Assembly: GCF_964204645.1 (NCBI RefSeq)
Contig: NC_134026.1
Span: 14,232,150 to 14,296,149, forward strand
Length of the DNA stretch: 64,000 nt
DNA from: Tubulanus polymorphus
Lineage: Eukaryota; Animalia; Nemertea
Direction: 5' to 3'
Shown here: piece after piece, positions 168 through 64,000 of the stretch
Numbering within the stretch: the first letter of the stretch is position 1
Layout of the letters: every line of letters starts with the position of its first letter
Notes under the pieces: generated by a model
Databases searched by the model: none
What the model saw: the letters and a program-made list of their open reading frames with translations, nothing else
Told to the model about the DNA's origin: nothing
Translations under genes and position numbers: made by a program

Positions 168-3132
168 ATGGGAGACAGTGAACACCAAACAGAAAACATT
201 AATGTTAATAAAAATCAATATTTTTGTTCATATTGTAAAAAATACATCGATAAATCTCAAAAATCTCGACATGAAAAAGCTGCAAATCATAAAAAAATGT
301 TATAGATTTCTAGACACCAGAAAATTCCAATGAAAGAAAAGAACGATTAAATGATATGAAAAAGATGAAATTAAATGTAATGTTTGTAATGAATTTATAG
401 CAAAAAGGAATTATAAAAGACATCTCAAATCACAAAAACACAAACAAAATTTTAATAAAGATATTTTAGGAACAGAATATTTTGATGATTAACCTCAACA
501 AGTAAAAAACCAGCTTCAAAAACTGAATCTATTTCAAATAAACCTTATATGAAAAATGTTTGAAATTATATCGATTCACTAGAAATATAAGATAAAATTG
601 AAATTTTAGAAACATTACGCAGTAAAATTGGTCCTGCAGCTATAGTATTTAGGTTTTTAAAGGTACAACAGTAGAAGATTATAGTTAATGTATTGAAATA
701 ATGGAAAAAATAATGGTCCTTGTAACAGATGTTGAATATCCAAAAATTAGTATTGCTGGAAAAGTAACTTTTATAAAATCAGAAGTAAAATGGAGTATAA
801 TATTCAAACACATTCTGAAGAAATAATTTTAAAAACACAAATAAAAGAGCAATTAGAAAAAATATTTAATGAATTTAAATGTGATATTGAGGAAAGATAT
901 TTTGAGGGTTCTGGTTTAACATTGAATGAAATTATATTTTTAGATTTAAATATTTATAATACAAAAAGGAATAAAGCATCAAAAAGTAATACAATGTTTA
1001 CAAATAATTCAAACTTTACAACAGAAAAGGATATTAAAGCATCATCTTATATTAAATTACCATTTACAACAAAGGCAGTAATAAATGTTTTAAAAATGAT
1101 AATAAACGTTTTCTATGGTCAATTATTAGTTGTTTACACCCAACAGAAGATATTACGCATAGTTTTAGAATAACAGATTATCGGAAATATGAAACATTAT
1201 ATAAAATTGATCAATATCCAGTAACCATATAAATGATTTCTAAAATAGAAAAAGTTAATAATTTAAAAATAAATGTATTCGAATTAATGCAATTACCAGG
1301 GACAAAAGGTGAAAATATTAAAGATTATACATTAGAAGCTTTATATTTAAAAGAATATTATGATGATGAAAGTGTTATAGATTTGTTATATTACAAAAAA
1401 AGATGAAAATGAACATTATGTGTGGTTAAAACAAATATATTTATTCTTTAGGACAGAAAGTTATCACCATAATAAAATTTATCTATGTAGAAAATGTTAA
1501 TCTAAATCTAGAACTGAAAATGCGTTACTAAAACATAAAGAATTATGTGATAATAAAGATTTTTGCAAATTAATAATTCCAACAGAAGAAGATTATAAAT
1601 TGAAATTTACTAATTATAAATTCAAAAATATAGTGCCATTTGTAATTTATGGGGATTTTGAATCGTTGAATAAAGAATTAACTGATCAAGATAGAAAAGA
1701 AATATATAACAAAAAGCAATTTTTAAAATCAATGGACAAAGGAAATAAATTAAATGAAAACATAATTCAAGACCCACCAATCATAAATACAATTAAAAAT
1801 GTTCATCAAAGAGCTGCTGCTTATGGAATTTATATAAAATCAAATTATCCTGAATTATATGAAAGTCAATATATTTCTTTTAGAGGTGAAGATGTAGTAA
1901 ATGAATTTTGTAATAAAATAATTGAATTAGAAAGTGATTTTGCACAATTATGATACAAAAAAAAGAATAGTTATGACAAAAGAAGATGAAATTGATTTCA
2001 AGTATGCAACTCATTGTTAACAAAATTTAACAAAAAATTTTTAATAAAACATTAAATATTAGGAATCATTTTAATATAAAAATCATGGTGAATTAGTAGA
2101 TTTTCAAAATCAGATGTTATGATATTGGCTGATATATTTGAAAAATTTAGAGAAGTTAATTCAAATCATTTTAATGTTGATCCTTGTTATTGTTTTTCAA
2201 TTCCTGGTTTAACCTGGCAATGTGGTTTAAAATATACAAATTTAGAATTAGATTTATTAAAACAACCAGACATAGTTTTATTATTTGAAAAATCAAGTAG
2301 AGGTGGAAGTAGTGGTGTTATGGGAGATAGGTATTTTAAAGCAAATGATGAATATAAATTATTATATATTGACGCCAATAATTTATATGGTTGGGCAGTG
2401 ATGCAACCTCAACCATATAATAATTTTATATCAACAGAAGTTCAAAATTATGAGCGCAATTATGAGTTTAGAAGATGATGCACCTATTGGTTATTTCTTT
2501 GTAGTTGATTTAGAATATCCTGATAACATATAGTTCAAAACAAGAAATTTACCTTATTGCCCAGAACATTTAGCCGTAGATGATAGTTATCTAAGTGAAT
2601 ACCAGAAAAAATAAAATCGAAAGACCATGTTTTTACAGAAAAATTAATATTAACACAACATAATAAATATAATTATATTGTTCATTATAGAATGTTAAAA
2701 TTGTATCTATAACAAGGAATGAAATTAAAGAAAGTACATAGATATATTGAATTTAATCAATCGAAGTGGTTAGAAAAATATATAGATTTCAATACTCAAC
2801 AATATCTAAAACAGATTTTGAAAAAGATTTTTTTTAAATTAATGAATAATAGTTTTTTTTGGAAAAACATGTGAAAATATTAGAAATAGAAATGATATTG
2901 AATTAGTAAATAATTCTGAACGATTGAAAGATTTACAATCAAGTCCTAGACACTTAGGAAATAAAAGATTTGAAGATTATTTAACAGCAGTAAAATTACG
3001 ATGAAATTTAATAAACCCATATTCTTTGGTTCAACTGTTTTAGAAATATAAAAATTATTAATGTATGATTTATATTATAATGTTTTACAACCACTTTTTG
3101 GGGAAAAGCATATTGAAATATTATATTTTGAT
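168..3132 (+). pseudogene. Protein-primed family B DNA polymerase (N-extein), with N-terminal C2H2/U1-type zinc fingers
   Basis: Fragments give CSYCKKYIDKSQKSRHEKAANH, exonuclease VIYGDFES, DVMILADIFEKFR, motif A YIDANNLYGWA, motif B KLMNNSFFGK (~2836-2865) and motif C start ILYFD (3118-3132). Confidence 0.9.
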
Positions 3133-3762
3133 TCTGTAACAGCTGATACTCCAATATTATTAAAATACAATAATCAAATATTAATAAGAAGAATTTCAGA
3201 AATAATACCTTATCAAAATAAATTTCATATTTCATATGGTGAAAAAGAATTAATACAAATAAGTGGATTAATGGATGTTTGGACAAAAAATGGATGGAAA
3301 AATTAAAGAATATAATTAGACATAAAACAAATAAAAAGATGTATAGAGTTAGATCTAAATTAGGGTTTGTAGATGTTACTGAAGATCATAGTTTAATTAG
3401 AAAAAATGGTGATGAAATAAAACCAACTGATATAAAAATTGAGATGAATTATGACATAAAAGATTTTATCCAAGAATGAATCATATGTCATTTGACAAGA
3501 TAATTGATAATATTTATAACATAGAACCTGAAATCTTAGAAGAAAAAGAATATTTTATCAAAGGATTTTTTATGGGAGATGGTTCAGCAGGTGTGAATAA
3601 TTATGCTGGAGGCAATAAATATTGTTGGTATTTATGCAATCAAGATTTCAAATTATTAGAAAGAATTAAAAATTATTGTGAAGAAGTTTATTCACATAAA
3701 ACATTTAAAATCGTGGATCATATGAAATCAACAGCAGTTTATAGAATACTTGTAAATAATCC
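3133..3762 (+). mobile_element. Intein (pol-c site) with LAGLIDADG homing-endonuclease motif; frameshifted, C-terminal part lost
   Basis: Directly after YFD: block A SVTADTPILL, then VWTKNGWK-LKNIIRHKTNKKMYRV, block B VDVTEDHSL, block C FIKGFFMGDGSAG; two single-base frameshifts (~3300, ~3441) and a stop join the three ORFs. Confidence 0.88.
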
Positions 3763-3945
3763 AATTCTATATTCTTGCAATAGTGAAAAGTAATACTTCA
3801 ACAAAAGAACAAATCTTAAAAAACATCGATAGTTACATACTAAAAATACGTTATTTTCGAATCGATCGTATGGATTTATTGTTGAAATTTAGTTAAATCG
3901 ACGCCATACTTTACATGGCGATATAACGTGACCTTGCGCTAAGAG

Positions 3946-4895
3946 GTGACTCGTACTCGTGCTAACTCATACGTGTCAAACGGAGAACCGACAATGGGCA
4001 GACCAAAACGTAAACAAAGTCGTAACAGCTCTGGCTCTGCAAGTTCCAACGCATCCAATGAACCGGATCGAAAGAGACATTCAACCAGAAACCGCTCTCA
4101 TCAAGAACCAGTCTACGAAAATGAAAACGAAAACGCCGCATCCGACGATGTTTTTGAAACCCTGCCCTCCGACCGATCTCTACAGGACGAACTTCTGGAT
4201 GTTAAGATTTTAGAAGTTCTGAACAGCGATGTTGTCCGCAGTATTTTAGAACCGTTGGTCAACTCGGTACTGTCATCGTTTAGGAGAGAATTGACGATCA
4301 TTATGAACGATAAGATGGACAGATTGGATACTCTTATGTTTGATCTCGGGAAATCGCAGGACGATCTCAAAAGTCACATAGAGACAGCTGTCGAGAAAAT
4401 GAGTGATTCTCTAAATCTCATCAAACAACAAATTGTTGTCCTGGAAAAGAAATGTTCTGACAACCAGGCTCAAACTAGAGCTCGAAGCTTACCAAGAAGA
4501 ACTAGAAATGTATACAGGGCGTAATTCAGTGCGGATTTTTGAATTGGATATCTTAATTTCAGACAATCCAATCAGACAATCCAATCGATCGTGCGCATTG
4601 GATTGGTAAACCGCCTATCGATCCCCGATTACCACGACCACTCATCGTTAAATTTGTTAGACATCTGAACAAAGAACGCATTCTCAAACAAAGGCGTATT
4701 TTGAAAGGAACGAAAATCCGTATTTGCGAGGATCTCACCAAATGTAGAGCAGATTCTCTTAAGTTTCTATATAACCATGAAAGCGTGAGCGCGTGTTGGT
4801 CGTTTTACGGTCGGATTAATGCGATTTTAAATGGGAAAAAGTTCAACGTAAACGGTTACGCGGAATTCGACAGAATCCTGAAAAGTAAAAAATAA
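3946..4895 (+). mobile_element. LINE ORF1p-like (L1/Transposase_22-type) gene fragment, no ORF2
   Basis: Higher GC than flanks; coiled coil followed by IDRAHWIG...PRPLIVKF...LKGTKIRICEDLT...WSFYGRI. Confidence 0.7.
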
Positions 4896-5123
4896 CGAAT
4901 TCGTTGTGTTTCGAAAACCCGCGCGTGCCAAAATAAATGACTCGAGTATTAAAAGATTAAAAGGAAATAAATGTAAATTCAGAACTTATTTACTAGATAG
5001 ATTTCAAAGATTATCTAGTGAAGATATTGAAGATTTAAAATCTGGGATATTTTATTTCATATATAAAGGTTAGAATGAAAAAGGGCACCATGATATAGAT
5101 TTCGAATAAAATATGTAAAATAA

Positions 5124-10259: not shown

Positions 10260-13200
10260 GGGCTGGTTTAAAACACAATGATTTATTATCTGTGACTGTA
10301 TATATTGATTGAATGGTTACCAGTCCAGCAAGTTCCGTTACTTTCTGTTCATTATATTTGTTACACTGTGTATTTGTGGGAAAGATCCTGATTCCATTTT
10401 GTAAATCTGGGAAATTGGTGGCATGAACATCTGTTTGTCTAGTGCTTAGTGTACGTATATCGTCGGTGCGTAGTGACAGTAGCCCGGATGTAAACAAAAC
10501 AAATCAAAACAAGAACACCGGCATCTGCAATTATGAAGGCGGTTTCGAATCCCATCCGATCGAATCATTTCTTTTATCAGAAATGAAAAGATATTAATCT
10601 TTTAAATCAATAATTATACAACACAATTAATTCACCTAGACATGAATAAGTTGTCCGAAATCTTTAACAAAAATGTCTTCCCTTTTGATTGGCCTACTTA
10701 CACAAAACGGCTCTAGACCGAATTTTGAATATTCCTCAAAACAAATTTGAAGATTAAAACTGAATGTCCAAAACTTCGCAATGAATTCCAATAAATCCTC
10801 AATTACACTTAAAAATCAATTAGAAAAACCTACAACGGTAATTGATTTCATACCGGTATATCTTAACTTGCTCTACATATCTTTTCGTGATATTATTATC
10901 ATCGAGCTAACCTCATGCCTTAGCTCCTGTCCTCTCGTGCATGGGTGAAAAGGTTTCAGAAATTTTTGTAATACTTAATCATTGTCGAAAAAATTCGAAA
11001 AGGGTTTGTCATAAGCTAAATGTCATAATCATTGTGAAACTCTATACTATTTAAGGACTTTTAATTACAATTTGCGTCATCGTATTTGTTTATCAATGAT
11101 TTACAAAAATTTACTTTTCTGCAGGAAACAATATATGTTCATTGACTATGATATTGATCTCAGTGTTTGATAAAAACCGACTGTAGATATGTTTTGATAT
11201 TGTATTGATGAACTTGAACTTATATTTGTCGCTCCATATATAGCATTTATAGGATGAGACATGCAATAAATTGACAAAATAAAACATTGACATGGCATTC
11301 ATTAAATACTTAAGTGCATACATTCTCCCTCTGCATGGACTCGAACCCGATGGCATTGCGAGAAAACCGGAAAAAAACGTGTTTTCAGTCACCGGAACTA
11401 CGTGTGCTTTGTTACTAAATATAGACCGTCATTCCAGTGGATACGTATTAGATCGCACCATATCGTCAGGTGTTTGTAAGCCTTTTCGAAATCTATTACA
11501 TATGTCTGCTAATTTTGCTGACAAACATTGATTGTAAAATCTGATGTTGTGAATAAATCTGTCCAAACGTTATTCGAACCGCCATGTATTATGTCATTGA
11601 AAACAAAGTGGCCCATCACTGGTTTTAGTTGGAAGAAATCGCCAGATGTTATCACGCATAATTGACCAAAGTCTGTCTTTTCAGTTGGTGTTAAAATTTC
11701 ATTTAATCGTCGATGAATATAATGATGCATTTTATTTGAAACCATGCTTATCTCATCAATGATATGATAGTTAACATCAGCCCATTTGTTGTGTCAAGTG
11801 ATTGATTATTTGATACGAAAGGATGCAATGTTGTGCCACCAATGCTGAATGCTGCCACACCTGTTGGCGCAGTAACAACAACAATATTTTGGGGGGACCA
11901 TAGATGAAATGAATTTGTGGATGCGTTTTACCATTTCCTGCACCACCAGACACATGCAAATATAAAGGTGCAGGTGGTTTTTTTAGTTGACCTACTGCAT
12001 ATAAAAGCATATCAGCTGCATGTTTTTTATGACATCGAATACAGCTAGTTGATCAGTGCTCAGCGCAGAGAGCGCAAGTCATTGGTGTCTGGTTATTCTG
12101 AAACAAATGGATTGTTAGTGTCATTTGATTGTAAATCAACGTAGTTGTACATATCATTTAACGCAATGTCTGTCTGTATAGGTTCATTGGGTTTATGAGT
12201 GTTAGGAGCAATGACAGGACCAATGTCAGTAGAGTTGTGAGTGACGCTGGTAATTTGAAGCAGCTGCTGTTTGTGCTGAAAGAACTGAGTATTATTTGTC
12301 CATATCTACATGGTATATCTGGAATGATTCAAATGCAGTTGCATGTCTCAATAGATCAGATTCATATCTGAATGGCCAGTATAAAAGAAGAAGATGGTAA
12401 AAGTAATCATCGCCATCTGATGTTTGCGTTACTCTTTGCATGTTAACACAGCATGGTATTTGGCGTTTATGTATGAAGCCATAACTTGACTGAAGGGGAA
12501 TCATATTTTTTAAGTGTTTTTGGTTAAGTTTCGTAGAGCAAGTAGGTAGAGGCGAATTTATATAGAGTCAAAGGTGTTGAATTCAGTAGTGTTCGGTCAA
12601 TGAATGTAACGATTTATCAAATTTGAATGGAAAATGTCTGTTTACTGATCAACCATATCTAAGATATCTGCAGCTGGCTTGAGGAGCTCATTCTCTTTTC
12701 TGGTCTCTTAGTATTTATGAAAATTGTACTTCTTGATGAATCAGTGGAAGAGAACCTAATCGGAAAATCAGCTTCATGTTGGTTGATCTGTCTGTTAGTA
12801 AGCAATGTATGGCCTATAGCACGTAAAACTTTTGTTTGAGTGTTAGTATTTTGAGGTTTCAATTTTGCAGCTATTTTAAAGTGGAGATCTTTGGTTTCAG
12901 GTTTACATATATATGTTGAAATGTAATCGGCAGCACCTACAGCTGATCCGATGATCTGTATGTCCATATTTGCATTCCATTTGTCAAGTATGCATGTATT
13001 GTAAGGGTTGATCATGGTTTCATAATATGCCCTCTTTAGACTGTAGAAGTGTGATTTCGTTATAGGTGTTTTATTACAAAGATTTTAGTTGTACGAGTCG
13101 GTAATTGAAGGAAAAGTGAAACGGCAATTTGATTTTTGTGTACGACATGTGTGGATATGGCTGTGTGTTTGCAGTTTTGTCAGATTATGGTGATGGGAGT

Positions 13201-14600
13201 CCTGGATATGTGGTTTAGATACTGTTATTTGCTTGTCAATAACTGTATCTAAATCTAAGCCGTTCAAGACATTAATGTTTTCAAAATCAGGTACATAATC
13301 CAACCACAACAAGCAATGTATGCGTGGTGCTCCCCTTAGCTGGAATTCTACTCGCCAAAACCAATCAGTGATTTTTCCCAGTGGATAGGGTTGGGCAGGA
13401 ATGACATCACGAAATAATTTTTGCCATCAGTGACTGAAATGTCTTGCCGCATACGTTGAGTATTTAGAAAGTAAGTCACATCTATACTCAGTAGATGAGT
13501 GCAGGAACCTGTCCAAAGTAGTATCCAGTTTGTATATCTATTATGCCCTGTCAGAGATCGGGCCAGTGAAGGTCATTGGCTGATACCTTGAGGAGACGGG
13601 CCTAAAGTATGCATCATTGCAAAGAGATCGGACCTAGTTGCATACCAAAATGGTTCTGTACAACGGATCTGTCTCACGACGAGCCAAAAAATATGCTGGA
13701 TCAGACCAACGTCGATCACTGCTCAGAATACGAGTTTGTGCATACTCCAAGTAGGAGAAGCCTTTTTGTTTATGGTACCCACCAATAGCAGATGGAAATA
13801 ACCATGGAGATGATGATATTTCCACATTGAAGTATTTATGGGCATGTGCTCATTTCTCTGGACAGAGTATATGGGTACCGTACCGGATATTTGAGTGTTA
13901 TAGTCAGACACTGATTTGAATGAATTGAGTATAATTCCCAGGCAACACTAATGTATTGTCGATGTAAACATTGCCATATTTATCCTCAAATGGATAGCTC
14001 AATGAATACTGTGTATAGTATCGATGAAAACATCGTTATATAGATAGTTATTTGATTCAAACCATTCTTGTGCTGAATGTGTTTTCTGATAGCGGATGGG
14101 ATGTGCATAGTTTTGGTGTTGGTTTGAATTAATAATGTCACTTTGCATCCGGAAAACTTTGTCATCATTTGGAGATGGAGGAAGTGTCTGTGCAGGTTGA
14201 AGTGTGTGCGATGGGAAATGAATCGCTTGCCCTTTAATGACCTTTTGGCCATATGTTGAGTGTAATAATTGTCATGAACTGTTGAGTGATGGAAACGTAT
14301 AAGTTTGTCCATGCATTCAATGGAAGTTTGTTTTGGTTCAGGGTAGCCACACACTTTTCACAGACAATACAGTTTGATAGTATTATATGGGTGATGATCC
14401 TATGGTTAAGAACTTAATCATGCAGTAATTTTATCTGGTACTTGTGTGCGAATATTTTGTTTGCAGTACATTTTTTCACAAACTGAACATATGTATTTTG
14501 GGTTACTGTGAATACTTTTATCAAAATGGTTTGGTTTCTGAGCCTTCCGTTTAACTTTTGTGTAATCGTTTTGAGCAAGGGTAGGAAATATTACCTTTAT
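10260..14600 (-). mobile_element. Decayed Helitron/Helentron Rep-PIF1 helicase gene
   Basis: Minus strand: FWRVEFQLRGAPRIHCLLWL (Rep HUH, ~13300-13360), NPYN...WNANMDIQ, SGGAGNGKT (Walker A), IIDEISMV, GDFFQLKPV, IFPTN..C..YN (10340-10400). Confidence 0.88.
10465..11459. mobile_element. 995-bp non-autonomous DNA transposon inserted in the Helitron helicase
   Basis: Ends GGTGCG...CGCACC; 8-bp direct repeat ATATCGTC at 10457-10464 and 11460-11467; removing it rejoins helicase ...GLQTPDDIRTLSTRQ. Confidence 0.8.
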
Positions 14601-35109: not shown

Positions 35110-38100
35110 ATATTGAAGAAAGATATTTTGAAGGTTCTGGCTTGTCACTGAATGAAATTATATTTCTAGATTTAAATATTTATAATATACCAAGAAATAA
35201 AACATTAAAAAGAAATGAAATGTTTACAAATGATTCAAACTTTACAACAGAGAAGGATATTGAAGCATCGTCTTATATTAAACTACCATTTACAACAAAG
35301 TCAGTTATAAACGTTCGAAATGAAATAAAGAATGTTTTCTATGGTCGATTATAAGTTGCTTACACACAACTGAGGAAAATGTTTGTAGAGTAACAGAGTA
35401 CCGGAAGTATGAATCATTATATAAAATTGATCAATACCCAGTTACTATGAAAATAATACCTAAAGATACAATACCTAAGATATAAAAAGTTGATAATTTG
35501 AAAATGAATGTATCGAAATTAATGTAACTACCAGAGAAAAAAGGTGAAAATATTAAAGATTATACATTAGAAGCTTTATATCTAACAAAACATTATGATG
35601 TTGATATGTTATAGATTTATTATACTTTAAAAAGATGAACATTATATGTGGTTAAAACAAATAGATTTATTCTTTAGAACAGAAAGTTATTTTAACTACC
35701 ATCTTAAAATTTATCTTTGTAGAAAATGTTTATCTGAATTTAGAAATGAAAATGCATTACTAAAACATAAAGAATTGTGTAATATTAAAGATTTTTGAAA
35801 ATTAATAATGCCAACAGAAAAAGATTATAAATTGAAGTTAGTTTACTAAAAATTAATTTAAAAATATAGTTCCATTTGAAATATGGAGATTTTGAATCGT
35901 TGAATAAAGAATTAACTGTCCAAGATAGAAAGAAATATACAGTGAAAAACAATTATTTAAATCAATGGATAAAGGAAATGAACTAAATGAAGACTTAATA
36001 CAAGACCCACCAAGTATAAATACAATTTAAAGGGTTCAGCAAAGAGCTGAATTAGCAACAGATTTTACAAAATTATTAATTAAAAATAAAAATAAAAACA
36101 ATTATGACCAAAGAAGATGAAGTTGATTTAAGTAATGCAACTCATTGTTGTTACTGTGAACGTTTTTATTCAGATGATGATCATTTAAATTTAACATAAC
36201 GTGGAGCTGCTGATGAAGATTGTAACCTACAAGCTAAGAAAGTTAACTTCGTACCAATATTATTTCATTATATTTCAAGCTATGATACCCATTTATTTAT
36301 AATACAATTATTAGAAAAATTAGGTGTCATCAATCAAGACATAGAAAAATATAATGCTATACATGATGCAAGTGTAAAAAATAAGATTCTAGACTATTAG
36401 CTAAGACATCTGAAAATAAAATTTTATTTCAATTTGTTTGCTTTTGACTTTTAGATTGTTATAGATTTTTAGCAAGTTCATTAGATAGTTTAGCTTAAAG
36501 TTTAGTTGACAATGATTTTATAATAACGCTATTTATTATCCAAATGAACAAGACTTTTAATTATTAAGATATAAAGGCGCAATACCTTACTCATTTTATA
36601 AAACGCAGGATGATTTCAAAGAAACAAAATTATTGAATGAACAATTTTATGATCAATTTAAAAATAAGTAGGTGAAAGATGAAATGTTTAATTAAACGTT
36701 GAATACATGGAATCATTTCTATTTTAATCATGGCGAATTAGTTGACTTATATTTGAAATCAGATGTTATGATATTGGCTGATATATTTGAAAAGTTTAGA
36801 ATTAATTCAAATCATTTAAATGTTGATCCTTACAGTTATTCAAGTTTAACTTGGCAATGTGGTTTAAATATACCAATGTAGAATTAGATTTATTGAAAGA
36901 ACCGGACATGGTATTATTGTTTGAAAAATCTATAAGAGGTGGAATTTGTGGTGTCATGGGTGATAGGTATTTTAAAGCAAATGATGAATATAAATCATTA
37001 TATATTGACGCCAATAATTTGTTTGGTTGGGCAATGATGCAACCTCAACCATATAAAAATATAATATTAACAGAAGTTGAAGATGATGATAAAACTGATT
37101 GGGAAGTTGCAATTAAGAGCTTAAAAGATGATGTACCAATTGGTAATTTCTTTGTAGTTGATTTAGAATATCCTGATAACATAATGTTTTAAACAAGAAA
37201 CTTACCTCATTGCCCGGAACATTTAGTCGTAGATGATAGTTATCTATGTGAAAATCAGAAAAAAATAAAACCGAAAGATTATGTCTTTACTGAAAAATTA
37301 ATACTTACTCAAAATAATAAATCCAATTATATTGTTCATTATATAATGTTAAATATAATAATATTGTTCATTTTTTGGATGTTAAAAATATTTCAAACAA
37401 GGAAAGATATTACAAAAGGTACATAGATATATTGAATTTAATCAATCGAGATAGTTAGAAAAATATATACATTTCAATAGTTAACAGAGAACCATATCTA
37501 AGACAGATTTTAAAAAAGATTTTTTTTTAAGTTAATAAGCAATAGTTTTTATGGTAAAACAGTAAAAAATTGTGAGAAAAAGAAATGATATTGAACTAGA
37601 AAATAATTCTGAACGATTGAGGCACCTAAAATCAAGTACTAGACACTTAGGAAATAAAAGATTTGAAGATTATTTAACAACAGTAATATTAAAAGGAACA
37701 TCAATGAAATTTAATTAACCAATTTTGATAGGTTCAACTCTTTATCAAGTATCAAAATTATTAATGTATGATTCTTATCATAATGTTCTTTGCCACTTTC
37801 GTGGGTAGAAACATGTTGAAATATTATACTTCGATTCTGTAACAGCAACAAGGAATTTTTATGGATGATGGCTCAGCAGGTGTGTATAAATATGTAAGCC
37901 GTAATAGATATTGTTGGTATTTATGCAATCAAGATTTGAAATTATTAGAAACAATTGAAAAATACTGTGAAGAAGTTAATTCGCATACAGTTTTTAAAAT
38001 CATAGATTAATTATATAGCAATGATGATGATAAAATTCCTGGTTACTAGGAGGAGATGAACTAGGAGGTGATATCTGTTGAGATAAGAAGTAAAATGTAT

Positions 38101-46208: not shown

Positions 46209-46634
46209 ATGGAAGATAATATTGATATTATTCCTCATGATATAAATAAAACTAAATTAAAAATATATTTAGAAAAACAAATATCAGAATTTGAAAGTGA
46301 TTTAAAAGTTAAAAAGAAAAAATATTTAAAAAGTAAAATTATATATTATTTGATTATAAGTGGTTCGGTTACAATTAGTTCTGTAATAACATTTCTAGCA
46401 ATATTCAGTCCATTAACACCTTTAGCTATATCAATTGGTGTGTTAGGATTATGTTCAAGTGTTTTAACTGGTATAAGTTCAAAATTAAATATAAAAAGTA
46501 ATAAAGAAAAAATTAAAACTAATATAAAAGAAATTAATAGATTAAAGAATACACTAGATTATGTAATGAGTTTAAATGGTCATATAACAGTTGAAGAACA
46601 AGATAAATTATTAAAAGAATTAGTTAATTATTAA
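46209..46634 (+). CDS. Two-TM protein flanked by coiled coils
   Basis: Intact 141 aa; homologs at 6925 and ~19307. Confidence 0.75.
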   Translation: MEDNIDIIPHDINKTKLKIYLEKQISEFESDLKVKKKKYLKSKIIYYLIISGSVTISSVITFLAIFSPLTPLAISIGVLGLCSSVLTGISSKLNIKSNKEKIKTNIKEINRLKNTLDYVMSLNGHITVEEQDKLLKELVNY

Positions 46635-50681: not shown

Positions 50682-51805
50682 ATGGGTGGTAAAAAAACTC
50701 CTAATACTAAAGAACAATATTTAAGAAATTTATATTACAACCCTGAGAGTTCGGTTGCTTATTCTTCTACCAAAAATATATGGCGTCAAGTAAAACAAGA
50801 TAAATTAGATAAGACAATCCCACAAAATTTAGTTAAATATAAAGATATAAATGAATTTATGTTAGAACAACCAACATACACAACACATAAAAAAATTGTT
50901 AGAAAATATAAAACTCGTAAAACTATGGTAAGTTATGTAGATCAACAGTGGCAAGGAGATTTAATTGATATGAAAAATGTTAAGAAAGATAATGATGATT
51001 ATTGGTGGTTATTGAATATAATTGATATTTTTAGTTGTTATGTATGGAGTTTCCCACTTTATAGAAAAGATGCTGTACAAACATCAAATGTTTTAAGAAA
51101 ATTTCTTTCGGATGATAAACTAAAACCAGAAAAAATACAATTTGATGATGGAAAAGAGTTTGATAATTCACTTGTTCATGAACTCTTAGACAATCATAAT
51201 ATTAAATATTTTTCAACAAAATCGGATAAAAAAGCGGAAGTTGTTGAACGATTTAATAGAACATTAAGAACAAGAATGTGGAAATATTTTACAGCAAATA
51301 ATACTTTTAAATGGATTGATGTTTTACCAAAATTGATAGAAGGATATAATAATTCTTATCATTCTTCTATTGGAATGAAACCTATTGATGCTAGAAAACC
51401 TGAAAATGCTGAAATTGGAATAATTTATATGGAGCATTTGTTATAGATGATTTTGGTGAACCTAAATTTAAAGTTGGTCAAAATGTTAGAATTTCTAAGT
51501 ATAAAAAGATATTTGACAAAGGATACGATCGAAATTTTACTAGGGAAATATATAAAATAAAAAAGGTAATAACAACAAAACCATATGTCTATAAATTAGA
51601 AGATTTAGATGGTGAAGAAGTTGATGGCTACTTTTACGAAGAAGAATTAAGTTTAACTACTGAAAATCTAGAACAAGAATATAAAATTGAAAAAGTATTA
51701 AAAACAAAAACTATTAAAAGAAAAAAATATTCTTTAGTAAAATGGGTTGGATGGCCAGATAAATTCAATGAATGGATATTGTCAAGTAAAATTAAAAATA
51801 TATAA
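50682..51805 (+). pseudogene. rve integrase with chromodomain; frameshift near 51415
   Basis: QWQGDLIDM, IIDIFS, IQFDDGKEF, VVERFNRTLR, YNNSYHSSIGMKP, then YKIEKVL...LVKWVGWPDKFNEWI. Confidence 0.92.
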
Positions 51806-52411
51806 ATGAATAAGGAATTATTTATATTTGAGCCTCATAATATGTTAATTTCTGGTGTAACAAATTGTGGAAAAACTTATTTTATATTAAATTTATTAGA
51901 AACTGTTTATGAAAACTATTTTGATAATATAGTATTTTTTTGTCCAACATATGAATTTAATCAAACTTATGATAGAAATATTACTAGAAATAATAAATTT
52001 ATTATATTTGATCCTAAAACAGTAAAAGAAAATTTAGATAATTGTATTAAAATAGCAATAGATATTTATAAAGGATCAAATACATTATTCATTATAGATG
52101 ATTGTGCTAATCTACATGATTCAAAAATTACAGAAAGTGAGTTATGCTATTTAGCTTTTTCTGGCAGACATTTTGGGATAACAACTTGGGTTTTAAATCA
52201 AAAATATAATTCAATTGTTAAAGACTTTAGAGAAAACATTAGATTTCTAGTTTTATTCTACAATAAAGATAGAAAATGGATAAAAAATGCACTTGAGGAA
52301 AATGATATTATTCCACATGATTTACATAATGAATATATGGATAAATTGAAAAATATTAAAAGATGAAAATTACTATTTAGATTACAACACCCATTTAAAT
52401 ATGAATTTATT
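51806..52411 (+). CDS. A32-like (FtsK/HerA) packaging ATPase; stop at 52366 probably premature
   Basis: Walker A GVTNCGKT, Walker B FIIDD, GRH...Q...R.N motifs. Confidence 0.9.
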
Positions 52412-55930: not shown

Positions 55931-58255
55931 TAAATTCATATTTGTTTATTTGCATGTCCGCATACGTTCGGTTTCAAAGCTGAATCACATTTGAAGTTTA
56001 CACAGTGGTTGCATATTAGGTTCGAATATACCAATGCATTTTATTCTATGTATCGGTATTTCAATTTACTACAATTCCCATCCTCCTGAATGTCTTTGCA
56101 GAAAACCCGTCATCGCTGCTTTGCAGCTATATTTCATCATAAAATTGTTCCTTTGTAAGCTCAGTTATCTTAAAATCATTACATGATTTATAAAAAGAAT
56201 ATGGCGTGGCACCTGTATATCTCATTCATTGAAAATCATCATTATTTGGAAAGTGTTGTTTCAATACTTTTAATTCACCATCGATCAAACTTTTTGATAA
56301 ATTATCTAATGAACTATTTAAAAACCTATATGAGTCTATAAATCTTAAGCGACCGAATTGGAAAGATATATAATTTTCAGATGTTTTAGCTAGCATTCTA
56401 AATCTATAAGTTGGTATTTTGGGTGGTGGTGATGATGATTGGTATTGATTTGGTATTGTTATTTTTCACAAACATTTTACGATCCTTAAGGTAGATGCTA
56501 AACCAATTATATGCATGTCCACGAACCCCATAATGTGCTTATTTGAATAAAAGGTTGTCTATATTGAGTGAGTCGAATGTTTTCGATAAATCTAAAAATA
56601 AACCTAATGGGTAGTTATTGTTTTCTAAATTATAGATAATATTCCCAATGAAATCAGTCATGGCATGGATAGTGGAATGATTAGGTCGAAATCCGTATTG
56701 ACTGGGGTTTATAATTTTGTGTTTAGTGAAAAATTTGTATAATCGCGTATGACCTAGTTTCTCTTGGACTTTTGATAGGGTTGGTAGAAGATATATATGG
56801 CGGTAGTTATTGAACAGTTGCTTGTTACCATTTTTAGGGTTTTCTGTTTCTTCACAAAAAACCCTATTGAGATTCGCGTGATTGGGTTTTCTGTTAATTC
56901 ACAGAAAACCCTATTGATTGAGATTCGCGTGTTTCTTATTATCATTTTATGTCACACTATTTTCACTAAAAGAACATAGGCTTTGTTACCTTGCCACTGT
57001 TGTCGATACAATCCGTATGATATCCTTCAGCTCACTTTGATCTACAAATACTCTGTGCGTATTCTGATAAATGAACGTAACAAAAGCGCTGTAAACATCG
57101 AAAATTGGGTCCCATTCAATGAGGCGACATGTTTTTCTGAGTCGTCATCCCGAAATCCACAGGAGGTTGCTCGTCACTTCGTTTATCAATTCAAGTGTAA
57201 ATAAACAAATTTATTGCCGCAAGACGTCACATTCAGCCGCGGTTTTTAAACAGTAATTTATAACCATTACCCATTTTCCTCATCAAATCATATTATCGAT
57301 ATACAGGAAATTTAATGCTCTTGATTTTAAAAGCACTGTCGAGCCAGTAACATCGACGAATCGACGTGTGTCTCTTCGTCGTCGTTCCGGGGATCAGCTG
57401 TGAGTTTCTCCTCATCATGACAATCAAATGAAGTACAAATAAATTTATTACTACCAGTGATTTGGCCGCGGGCTTCAAACAGTTAGTTTAACAATACCTA
57501 ATTTTCTGTACCAAATTTACTGTATATTTACTAGGATAAATCATTAGAGTACCGGTGAGTCGTAGGCATACGTGGCAAAAAATTTATATTTACATTTTTC
57601 TTTTGTTCAAAGATTCATCTTAACCGCTGGAGGTCCCCCGTTATGCCGATAAACACACTAAAACACTTGAATAAAATTGCGAAAACTGTGTCAGAAATTG
57701 ATTTTATTATGTAAAATCGTAGAAAAGGTGCCCAGGTTGGTAGGTTCCGGTAGGCTATTTGACGCTGTTTGTAGGTTGAAAGCTGTGAACGCTGATACAG
57801 TGAGTGTAGTGCACACGTTTGGATTGTCTTTACAAACAGAAAGGGGAGCGTGCGCACTGCAAACAAGATGGCAGAAACTCTCTTGTGAAAAAATTGGGTC
57901 CCAGGCAACAACTTTATAGCGGATAATTAATGAATATGTACCGAATAAATAATTTTGTACTATGATATTTGGCATTTATTGCCAGCCTCAACCACGGCAC
58001 AAGCCCCTATGAACTAAACTATGAGTCCATTCTTATATGAATATGAATAGTGCTTTTCGGCGTTCTAATGCATTTTCTAACCCGATAGTAATTCCTCATC
58101 AGCATCTATTATAAACACAACATTTTGGCCCAAGATAGAGTTTAATACACAATCAATATACAGAGAAAATTACAATTTTCAGTGAAGGGCTACTCGAACT
58201 GTTGAATAAATAAACCACCAAACGGTGTAAACGACAAAATCCATTTTGATTTCAG

Positions 58256-62834: not shown

Positions 62835-64000
62835 ATTTAAGGTAAAGATTATTTTGATAAAGATAAATATAAGCAACAAAAGATAAAAAAAAAACAAAAA
62901 ATTAACTAAACAAGAAAAGACCATACATGGAAGATGTAAAAAATTACATTATTTATTAGATGATAAAAGAGATATGAAATAGCTGAAGTATTTAAAATTG
63001 ATATTGGTTCAGCAGCTATTGAGTTTAAATTTTTGGCAAAACATTAGAAAACAATAAAAAATATTTAGAAAATATGAAAGATATAATATAAATAATTACA
63101 GGCGAGGAATATCCAAAAATAAGTATATCTGCGAAAGTTAAATTCATAAAATCTGAAGATAAACCAATATATAATATAAAATCTCATTCACAACATATTT
63201 TTTCAACACATATAGTCGATAGATTAGATAAATGTCATAATGAATGTCCAAATTTTTCAAATAAATCCGATAATAATAATACATCTGATTTTAGATATAA
63301 ATCAACTAATTCTCCATGATCTTTCATTTTGAAATGATTCCGAATATTTAATGTTCCATTAAAAACTTCATCTTTTATATCTTCATTTTTAATTGATCAT
63401 AAAATTGTTGTTTTAAAAATTGTGTTATTTTTAAATCATTATGATTTGTTATAAAAATAATATGGAATTGCGCCTTTTTAACTCATTAATTGAAAATCAT
63501 TATTTTTGGATTATATTGTTTTAATATTTTTAATTCATCACCAATTAAACTTTTAGATTATCAAGAGATCTACTTAAAAATCTATAGGAATCTATGAATC
63601 TTCAATATCCAAATTGAAAAGATATTGATTATGTTTTATGTTGGTAGTAAAGATTTTTCTATAATATGTGAGCGAAGTGGAAGAAGTGAAAGAATTAACT
63701 GTGAAGGAATAACCGAGAACACAGAACAAATTGAATGGTCGCGGCAATTAGAAATTAAATCAAAACAACTTGAAAAGCACAAAAAGAAAAAATGAATAAC
63801 GAAAATAAAGATGAATATAATGTTGAATATAATGTTATTTCTACTCCTTCTAAATTATTTAATGAATTTTTATTATTCAACTGGACTGGTAATTTTACTC
63901 ATTTTGATTGGATGTAATTGGTATGAAAAATCAAATAAATTTTGTTGTAATAATTCTGAAACTTCTACTTTTAAAAACGAAGAAACTACTGAAATTCCAA
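62835..64000. mobile_element. Jumbled Polinton fragments: pPolB N-terminal piece (+), pPolB internal piece (-, ~63250-63640), small TM gene (+)
   Basis: IGSAAIEFKF...YPKISISAKVKFIKSE; minus strand FIDSYRFL...HGELVDLYLKSDVLLLSDLFENF; SEVEEVKELTVK. Confidence 0.75.

Follow-up and report, generated by a model that had tools for sequence, protein, structure and literature searches.

Positions 3133-3824 of a 64,000-nt stretch of DNA, referred to here in its whole length as the window, are a decayed pol-c LAGLIDADG intein lying within motif C (YFD/, the slash marking the insertion point) of a protein-primed Polinton DNA polymerase of family B (pPolB). Intact members of the same intein clade were found in other pPolBs, and we hold with good confidence the reading in which the window carries the decayed relic of an intein whose intact relatives are predicted to splice and are likely to home. 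An earlier reading of this DNA, made from its letters alone (the sequence-only reading), had proposed such an intein in a single polymerase; the insertion is not a one-off, as the clade runs through many Polinton families with both filled and empty alleles. In Polinton polymerases the clade is apparently undescribed so far.

In the first polymerase copy of the window (copy 1), the pPolB frame (3052-3303) reads IEILYFD up to 3132 and passes without a break into SVTADTPILL from 3133. Downstream of YFD follow VWTKNGWK, IIRHKTNKKMYRV..VDVTEDHSL, with IIRHKT preceding VDVTEDHSL, and FIKGFFMGDGSAG..CWYLCNQDFKLLE; the frame is broken along the way by two frameshifts, near 3300 and near 3441, and by a stop at 3452-3454. 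The motifs quoted in the sequence-only reading, including YFD/SVTADTPILL in frame, the two frameshifts and the stop, are all present where it had placed them. A profile of 96 complete PolB inteins matches three pieces of copy 1 in order (model positions 1-63, 57-111 and 121-204 of 344, with E values of 1e-7, 1e-21 and 6e-26), and the sole other strong match in the window falls in a second copy (37843-38007, E 2e-14), the next having an E value of 0.065. The ordered matches lie well outside what chance would give and, together with blocks A, B and C, bear out the proposal that a Polinton pPolB here carries a genuine homing intein of the pol-c type. The suggested check with Hint and LAGLIDADG hidden Markov models recovered TIGR01445 intein_Nterm (E 0.007) and Pfam LAGLIDADG_3 (E 0.008) in the broken pieces of copy 1, both below cut-off, and Intein_splicing above cut-off in the intact relative P0163. 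The N-extein was recognised by Pfam DNA_pol_B_2 (E 0.001 over 2092-2475) and by tblastn with the pPolBs P0164, P0175, P0280 and P0290, which aligned to several broken pieces. The features of copy 1 are:

1030-3132, plus strand: decayed Polinton pPolB, N-extein of copy 1, with many stops and frameshifts; its last residues are YFD, one half of motif C
3133-3824, plus strand: intein remnant of copy 1, measuring 692 nt where intact relatives have about 1,040 nt, with two frameshifts, a stop and a break near 3760
3133-3162, plus strand: block A with Ser1 (SVTADTPILL); Ser is first in all 101 complete relatives
3369-3395, plus strand: block B, TxxH (VDVTEDHSL), from the profile and TIGR01445, with TEDH at 3378-3389
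3554-3583, plus strand: block C, first LAGLIDADG motif (FIKGFFMGDG), from Pfam and the profile
3810-3848, plus strand: probable C-terminal junction from junction scoring, Asn at 3822-3824 followed by eight C-extein residues (KN/IDSYILKI)

The C-terminal junction, which the sequence-only reading had held to be missing from the window, is probably present behind an internal deletion (ILKN/IDSYILKI at 3813-3848), so that this part of the reading was probably wrong. After the first nuclease motif, the intein runs to about 3809 and then jumps to QILKN/IDSYILKI; the deletion near 3809/3810 would span about 350 nt if ILKN/IDS is the junction, and the second LAGLIDADG motif and block F fall within the deleted part. 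Positions 3807-3854 (EQILKN/IDSYILKIRY) scored best of 127,900 six-frame 16-mers compared with ten junctions of intact relatives (25.6, a chance site reaching 25.3), and with a 12-mer probe the EQILKN/IDS site ranked second to a chance site. The junction score alone is therefore modest, a chance site being nearly level and winning with the shorter probe; strand, frame and position fit a C-terminal junction. The +1 residue of copy 1, the Ile of KN/IDS, is no longer a nucleophile.

A second copy (copy 2) repeats the arrangement further along the window:

36071-37835, plus strand: decayed pPolB copy 2, ending in YFD, with 80% DNA identity to copy 1
37836-38007, plus strand: intein remnant of copy 2, comprising SVTA, a deletion and 52 endonuclease codons, from the profile and alignment

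Four sequencing runs, from one study and at most two samples, contain the window stretch, one of them possibly being the window's own source. In the organism of the window's family, the 3132 junction is bridged by several contigs, and contigs of runs X2 and X3 bridge 3780-4062 and 3780-4541, so the arrangement of copy 1 is not an assembly error. At 3132, other contigs either stop (X2 record 13, X3 record 21) or depart from the window sequence (loose ends in X1 and X4), and the summed depth in X1 falls across the junction from about 54,600 to 11,100, depth not being equivalent to copy number. The positions of these contig ends point to empty beside filled alleles in the window's family.

Relatives were collected by phmmer with the translation of 3455-3790 (170 matches at E ≤0.001, the best 150 listed) and by scanning viral contigs (10 loci from 36 candidates). 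A complete intein was present in 101 of the 163 proteins collected, with Ser first in all, YGD before 98 and Asn last in 99; 96 of these 101 formed the profile used to scan the window. A second profile, made from 18 pieces (two from the window and 16 short database fragments) and searched against longer proteins, gave 198 matches among 7,998 candidates scored; 16 of the best 120 listed were intein-bearing pPolBs, half of which (8/16) held the whole intein. Among them, P0163 (1,537 aa) reads YMD/S..HN/TDS, P0168 YSD/S..KN/TDS, P0175 ASD/S..HN/TDS and P0170 YLD/S..KN/TDS, and the locus L013 encodes a pPolB with the same intein at the DNA level, with a terminal Asn, Thr at +1 and one frame break. 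All nine complete inteins tabulated (those eight and P0299) have Ser1, both GFxxxDG motifs, an H/K-N end and Thr at +1; the expectation that full-length relatives end in N/TDS was borne out. The two LAGLIDADG motifs retain their acidic catalytic residues in all nine, whereas the window copy has only the first; the block B His motif is intact in eight, one of these with a one-residue gap. P0163 exceeds the Pfam cut-offs for DNA_pol_B_2, Intein_splicing, Hom_end and LAGLIDADG_3, the intein-bearing Beta-type pPolBs also carry a separate HNH-like domain (PF02945), and the source contigs of the intact relatives reach 1.0 Mb.

In a structural model of P0168, whose predicted score on the local distance difference test exceeds 90 for most of the intein and is poor for the extein pieces, the intein is folded as Hint plus LAGLIDADG. 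The model matches the structures of TliVMA, PhoVMA, PI-PfuI and PI-SceI (E 3e-15 to 2e-11 cited for TliVMA, PI-PfuI and PI-SceI), as well as models of PolBs from nucleocytoplasmic large DNA viruses (NCLDV), including phycodnavirus, Megavirus and HaV01 PolBs; a sequence search of the PDB with P0168 gave no match. Word-based searches for longer proteins yielded none of 47 candidates with 3455-3790 and one of 28 with 3052-3303 (P0155, 79%), and scans of viral contigs with 3052-3303 and with P0163 found no relative. A DNA pattern of the C-terminal junction occurred in one viral and three metagenome loci, L013 being the only pPolB, and the 60 listed matches to the A4 profile were polymerases throughout.

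The intein family also occurs in other settings. Chloropicon primus DNA polymerase delta (P0260) has a complete member at YGD/TDS, P0007, P0013 and P0017 carry the family also at a second PolB site, and among the three inteins of the topoisomerase II-like protein P0171 two belong to the family of the pol-c intein. P0040 and P0051, PolBs of archaeal appearance by eye, contain the same pol-c intein family. The giant-virus PolB inteins at L011 (4000-5060) and L014 (1-650) have nuclease motifs that look degenerate, with the visible splicing ends intact.

The pPolB inteins, including that of the window, all fall into a single clade, supported by FastTree at 0.979 (203 rows), by a Shimodaira-Hasegawa-like approximate likelihood ratio test (SH-aLRT) of 98.5 and bootstrap of 100 with 65 rows, and by 100/99 with 31 rows; the 65-row tree left out eight near-identical cluster members and most of the distant inteins, 15 of those outside a 58-tip clade being kept. 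Separate intein and extein trees, as the sequence-only reading had advised, agree among Beta-type pPolBs (class names following PMC8502044), where paired intein and extein identities follow each other (69/75, 66/68, 49/44 and 45/43%). The exception is P0170, assigned to the Alpha-type pPolBs because of its stronger PF03175 match: its extein is 23-32% identical to the others and its intein 42-50%, and the intein is placed inside the pPolB clade (bootstrap 99 and 94). This discordance implies a jump between pPolB classes. Rooted on inteins of other sites, the pPolB clade nests among the pol-c inteins of RNA-primed PolBs, which formed one group in 0/200 bootstrap trees; the window piece reaches about 48% identity with inteins of environmental RNA-primed PolBs, and many relatives lie on giant-virus contigs. 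A giant-virus PolB is the likely donor. A Mesomimivirus-like GFPLIxxN group was also considered as donor and dropped on account of weak tree support.

Filled and empty alleles coexist within young families. In the P0163 cluster (136 members), the 15 members listed comprise seven filled, six empty and two that fall short of the site, and exteins of the full-length members among them are 94-99% identical. In each of the six empty alleles, 8-9 of the 20 residues surrounding the site are unlike those of the carrier P0277, compared with 1-5% elsewhere, the differences being concentrated from about -6 to +44, while the six other carriers show 0/20 differences from P0277; the empty sites come in three versions, YFD/TDA, YTD/CDS and YGD/TDA. 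As the sequence flanking the site in the carriers is similar to the flank in other filled families, the filled state is read as ancestral, and the empty alleles are read as conversions from templates with altered sites. Their site-centred differences are of the kind that homing with resistance would predict. Alternatively, the differences could be a co-conversion tract brought by the intein, in which case the nuclease would be involved here too, and plain recombination may also account for them. In the P0168 cluster (121 members), the 15 listed include three complete carriers and one empty allele, P0290, identical at 740 of 742 residues to the extein of the filled P0287.

Several observations weigh against the proposed history. 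That the intein and extein trees agree is compatible with simple vertical inheritance no less than with repeated homing; the six alleles lacking the intein in the P0163 family represent three site types and are not independent, so that binomial p-values exaggerate their weight; and the sole empty allele listed for the P0168 family keeps an unchanged site. Both intein copies in the window are dead relics and non-functional; the endonuclease stretch they have in common shows 3 synonymous against 16 non-synonymous codon differences, and the window copies have therefore decayed neutrally. No RNA dataset occurs among the runs listed for the window stretch. As for origin, an approximately unbiased (AU) test on 31 rows does not reject a single clade of RNA-primed PolB inteins (p=0.165), and the branching next to the pPolB clade, with bootstrap 83 and 75 in the 65-row tree, is an open fork in the 31-row tree. 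The kinship with giant-virus-type PolB inteins claimed in the sequence-only reading stands, the relatives being mostly RNA-primed PolB inteins, but its donor and direction of transfer remain tentative in view of the AU result and the cellular carrier P0260.

Part of this evidence would suit an intein that splices without homing, an inherited passenger whose empty alleles arose by ordinary recombination between Polinton families. The parallel identities and agreeing trees of the Beta-type pPolBs and the unchanged site of P0290 speak for this account, which we consider unlikely though worth keeping in mind. Unused homing nucleases are expected to decay (the Goddard-Burt cycle), yet both nuclease motifs are kept in 9/9 complete inteins down to 42% identity; in the empty alleles, the differences are concentrated at the site and come in three versions, and the jump of P0170 between classes requires mobility. 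It is very unlikely, in turn, that the filled copies were dead on arrival, as non-splicing inserts copied in trans by intein-free helper Polintons. Empty full-length polymerases do occur in the same families, and young copies would show open frames regardless, but inteins from two pPolB classes, with no more than 42-70% identity, have conserved splicing residues, which implies long purifying selection. An assembly chimera, or giant-virus DNA fallen by chance beside a Polinton, would be conceivable in such a tangle of nested, broken elements; it is practically dismissed by the codon-exact junction in motif C, found in two window copies, bridged by independent contigs and recurring in many other pPolBs, and is refuted by the intact relatives.

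The host is a separate matter. A real element in a non-animal host, such as an AT-rich protist or fungus, akin to the viral PolB inteins known from protist genomes, appears to us rather improbable, and an animal host highly probable. No host gene was recognised in the window, and the nearest Atlas clusters of the integrase list Preplasmiviricota, Parabasalia and Arthropoda, the integrase not being diagnostic. Against a non-animal host stand the Atlas clusters closest to P0163, which consist mainly of pPolBs from arthropods and molluscs (0.83-0.84, a lead only), and the reverse transcriptase and ORF1 fragments of the window, presumed to be of animal types. Beta-like PolBs, for their part, occur outside animals too, according to the available text of PMC8502044.

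The favoured reading, a homing intein of the pPolBs, suggests the following mechanism. The insert splits YxD/TDS exactly and separates the two aspartates of motif C, so the filled polymerase is predicted to work only after splicing; by established intein chemistry, splicing through Ser1, Asn and Thr+1 would restore the polymerase. The two-motif nuclease would cut empty alleles, and repair from a filled copy would duplicate the intein, whether the partners are integrated copies or replicating elements. The trees suggest that the intein entered once, long ago, from a PolB that was RNA-primed and probably of a giant virus, then persisted for a long time in Beta-type pPolB lineages and later jumped at least once to an Alpha-type pPolB, and the allele patterns suggest that the surviving empty alleles of one young family, with their altered sites, may have been selected to escape cleavage. 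The fullest version of this history, in which animals harbour self-splicing inteins because one giant-virus pol-c intein crossed to a pPolB, rode Polintons into several animals, jumped between the Alpha and Beta classes and acted as a gene drive that left resistant empty alleles, seems to us evenly balanced between true and false.

The pPolB inteins share the YxD/TDS site, Ser first, Asn last, Thr at +1 and a LAGLIDADG nuclease with the pol-c inteins of Mimivirus, other NCLDV and archaea, and have a similar size (339-350 aa, against 351 in the Mimivirus PolB intein, whose pol-c type was defined in the available text of Ogata, 2005; PMC549080). They differ from known pol-c inteins in that the extein is a protein-primed Polinton PolB (PF03175) and the element an integrating multi-copy transposon; the residues before the site are YFD, YMD, YSD, YLD or ASD, in place of the YGD found in 98/101 of the first relative set, and the pPolB inteins form a clade of their own apart from other pol-c inteins. 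HNH and VSR endonuclease domains have been described in Polinton pPolBs, the word 'intein' being absent from the text available (Jeong, 2023; 10.1101/2023.08.22.554363), and nuclease insertions in pPolBs were suggested to result from intein invasions in the available part of a later article citing that work (Krupovic, 2024; PMC11071308). Both those insertions and the window family place a nuclease inside a Polinton pPolB; as far as these texts extend, however, the HNH/VSR insertions lie elsewhere in the polymerase with no Hint reported, whereas a complete Hint plus LAGLIDADG intein occupies motif C here.

Inteins of viral-like DNA polymerases in Klebsormidium, Tetrabaena and a labyrinthulid, where they lie on nuclear scaffolds, as well as interparalog intein spread between B-family polymerases at one site in Anaeramoeba, are likewise virus-borne polymerase inteins in eukaryotic nuclear DNA; their hosts are algae and protists, and the words Polinton, animal and metazoa do not appear in the main text (Gallot-Lavallee, 2023; PMC10710043). 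Animal Hedgehog/Hint domains have the same Hint fold and an N-terminal nucleophile, but cleave and attach sterol without a homing nuclease according to the available text of PMC7765530 and PMC5784728, unlike the pPolB intein with its nuclease, terminal Asn and split extein. The survey of 257 eukaryotic inteins in PMC5784728 names no animal host in the text available. In agreement with the sequence-only reading, which knew of no earlier case, no true intein was found in a Polinton or protein-primed PolB in the portions of the literature available, although supplements, InBase, Repbase or subscription journals could hold one; within those portions, PMC8502044 does not mention 'intein', and PMC7765530, PMC12220804, PMC5718144, PMC13768754 and PMC3671162 contain nothing on pPolB inteins.

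The surroundings of the two inteins (window 1-64000) contain four or more decayed Polinton copies, all of one family, which are nested in one another, lie in both orientations and show 74-89% identity over their long matches. Self-alignment links the sister copies, so that the pPolB, rve integrase and packaging ATPase belong to one element family; in an inverted-pair scan bearing on terminal inverted repeats, the 25 longest of 43 pairs look like oppositely oriented sister copies, and copy 1 runs past the start of the window. The remaining features listed are:

3850-4930, plus strand: unrelated insertion with two open reading frame (ORF) pieces (3943-4524 and 4557-4895), replacing the rest of the polymerase
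50682-51443, plus strand: rve integrase of a sister Polinton copy (Pfam E 1e-9)
51413-51802, plus strand: chromo-domain piece of a sister Polinton copy (Pfam E 6e-5)
51806-52363, plus strand: A32 packaging ATPase of a sister Polinton copy (Pfam E 4e-12)

The insertion at 3850-4930 was delimited by lower summed contig depth and by a second alignment beginning at 3851, and its ORF pieces, without a Pfam match, resemble what we take to be ORF1 of a long interspersed nuclear element of invertebrate type. The C-terminal part of the pPolB was not found anywhere else in the window by tblastn, and candidate ORFs for capsid and maturation protease in the window gave no telling Pfam match. Additional pPolB fragments lie at 56130-56405 and 63250-63625, and a fragment of a non-long-terminal-repeat reverse transcriptase on the minus strand (56540-56900; RVT_1, E 8e-11), presumably of the CR1/L2 type typical of animals, abuts a pPolB fragment. 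A decayed Helitron (Pfam Helitron_like_N and PIF1; 11500-13430, minus strand) is inserted into the Polinton cluster, and positions 46209-46631 encode a small two-helix membrane protein with a weak SLATT_fungal match (E 0.003), SLATT appearing among MELD virus genes in the available text of PMC8502044.

According to surveys, in the text available, the eukaryotic inteins are those of fungi, algae and protists and of large DNA viruses, leaving animals with Hint domains of the Hedgehog type. With the clade described here, the range of inteins would come to include protein-primed PolBs and, probably, the nuclear DNA of animals. Homing would be seen to have crossed between two classes of polymerase with little in common except the motif C site, and the sequences would testify to an encounter of Polintons and giant viruses within one cell. 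Since the filled polymerase is predicted to need splicing to work, a spliced junction would mark Polinton expression. The young families, with their filled, empty and site-altered copies, would offer a natural test bed for the homing-resistance cycle within one genome.

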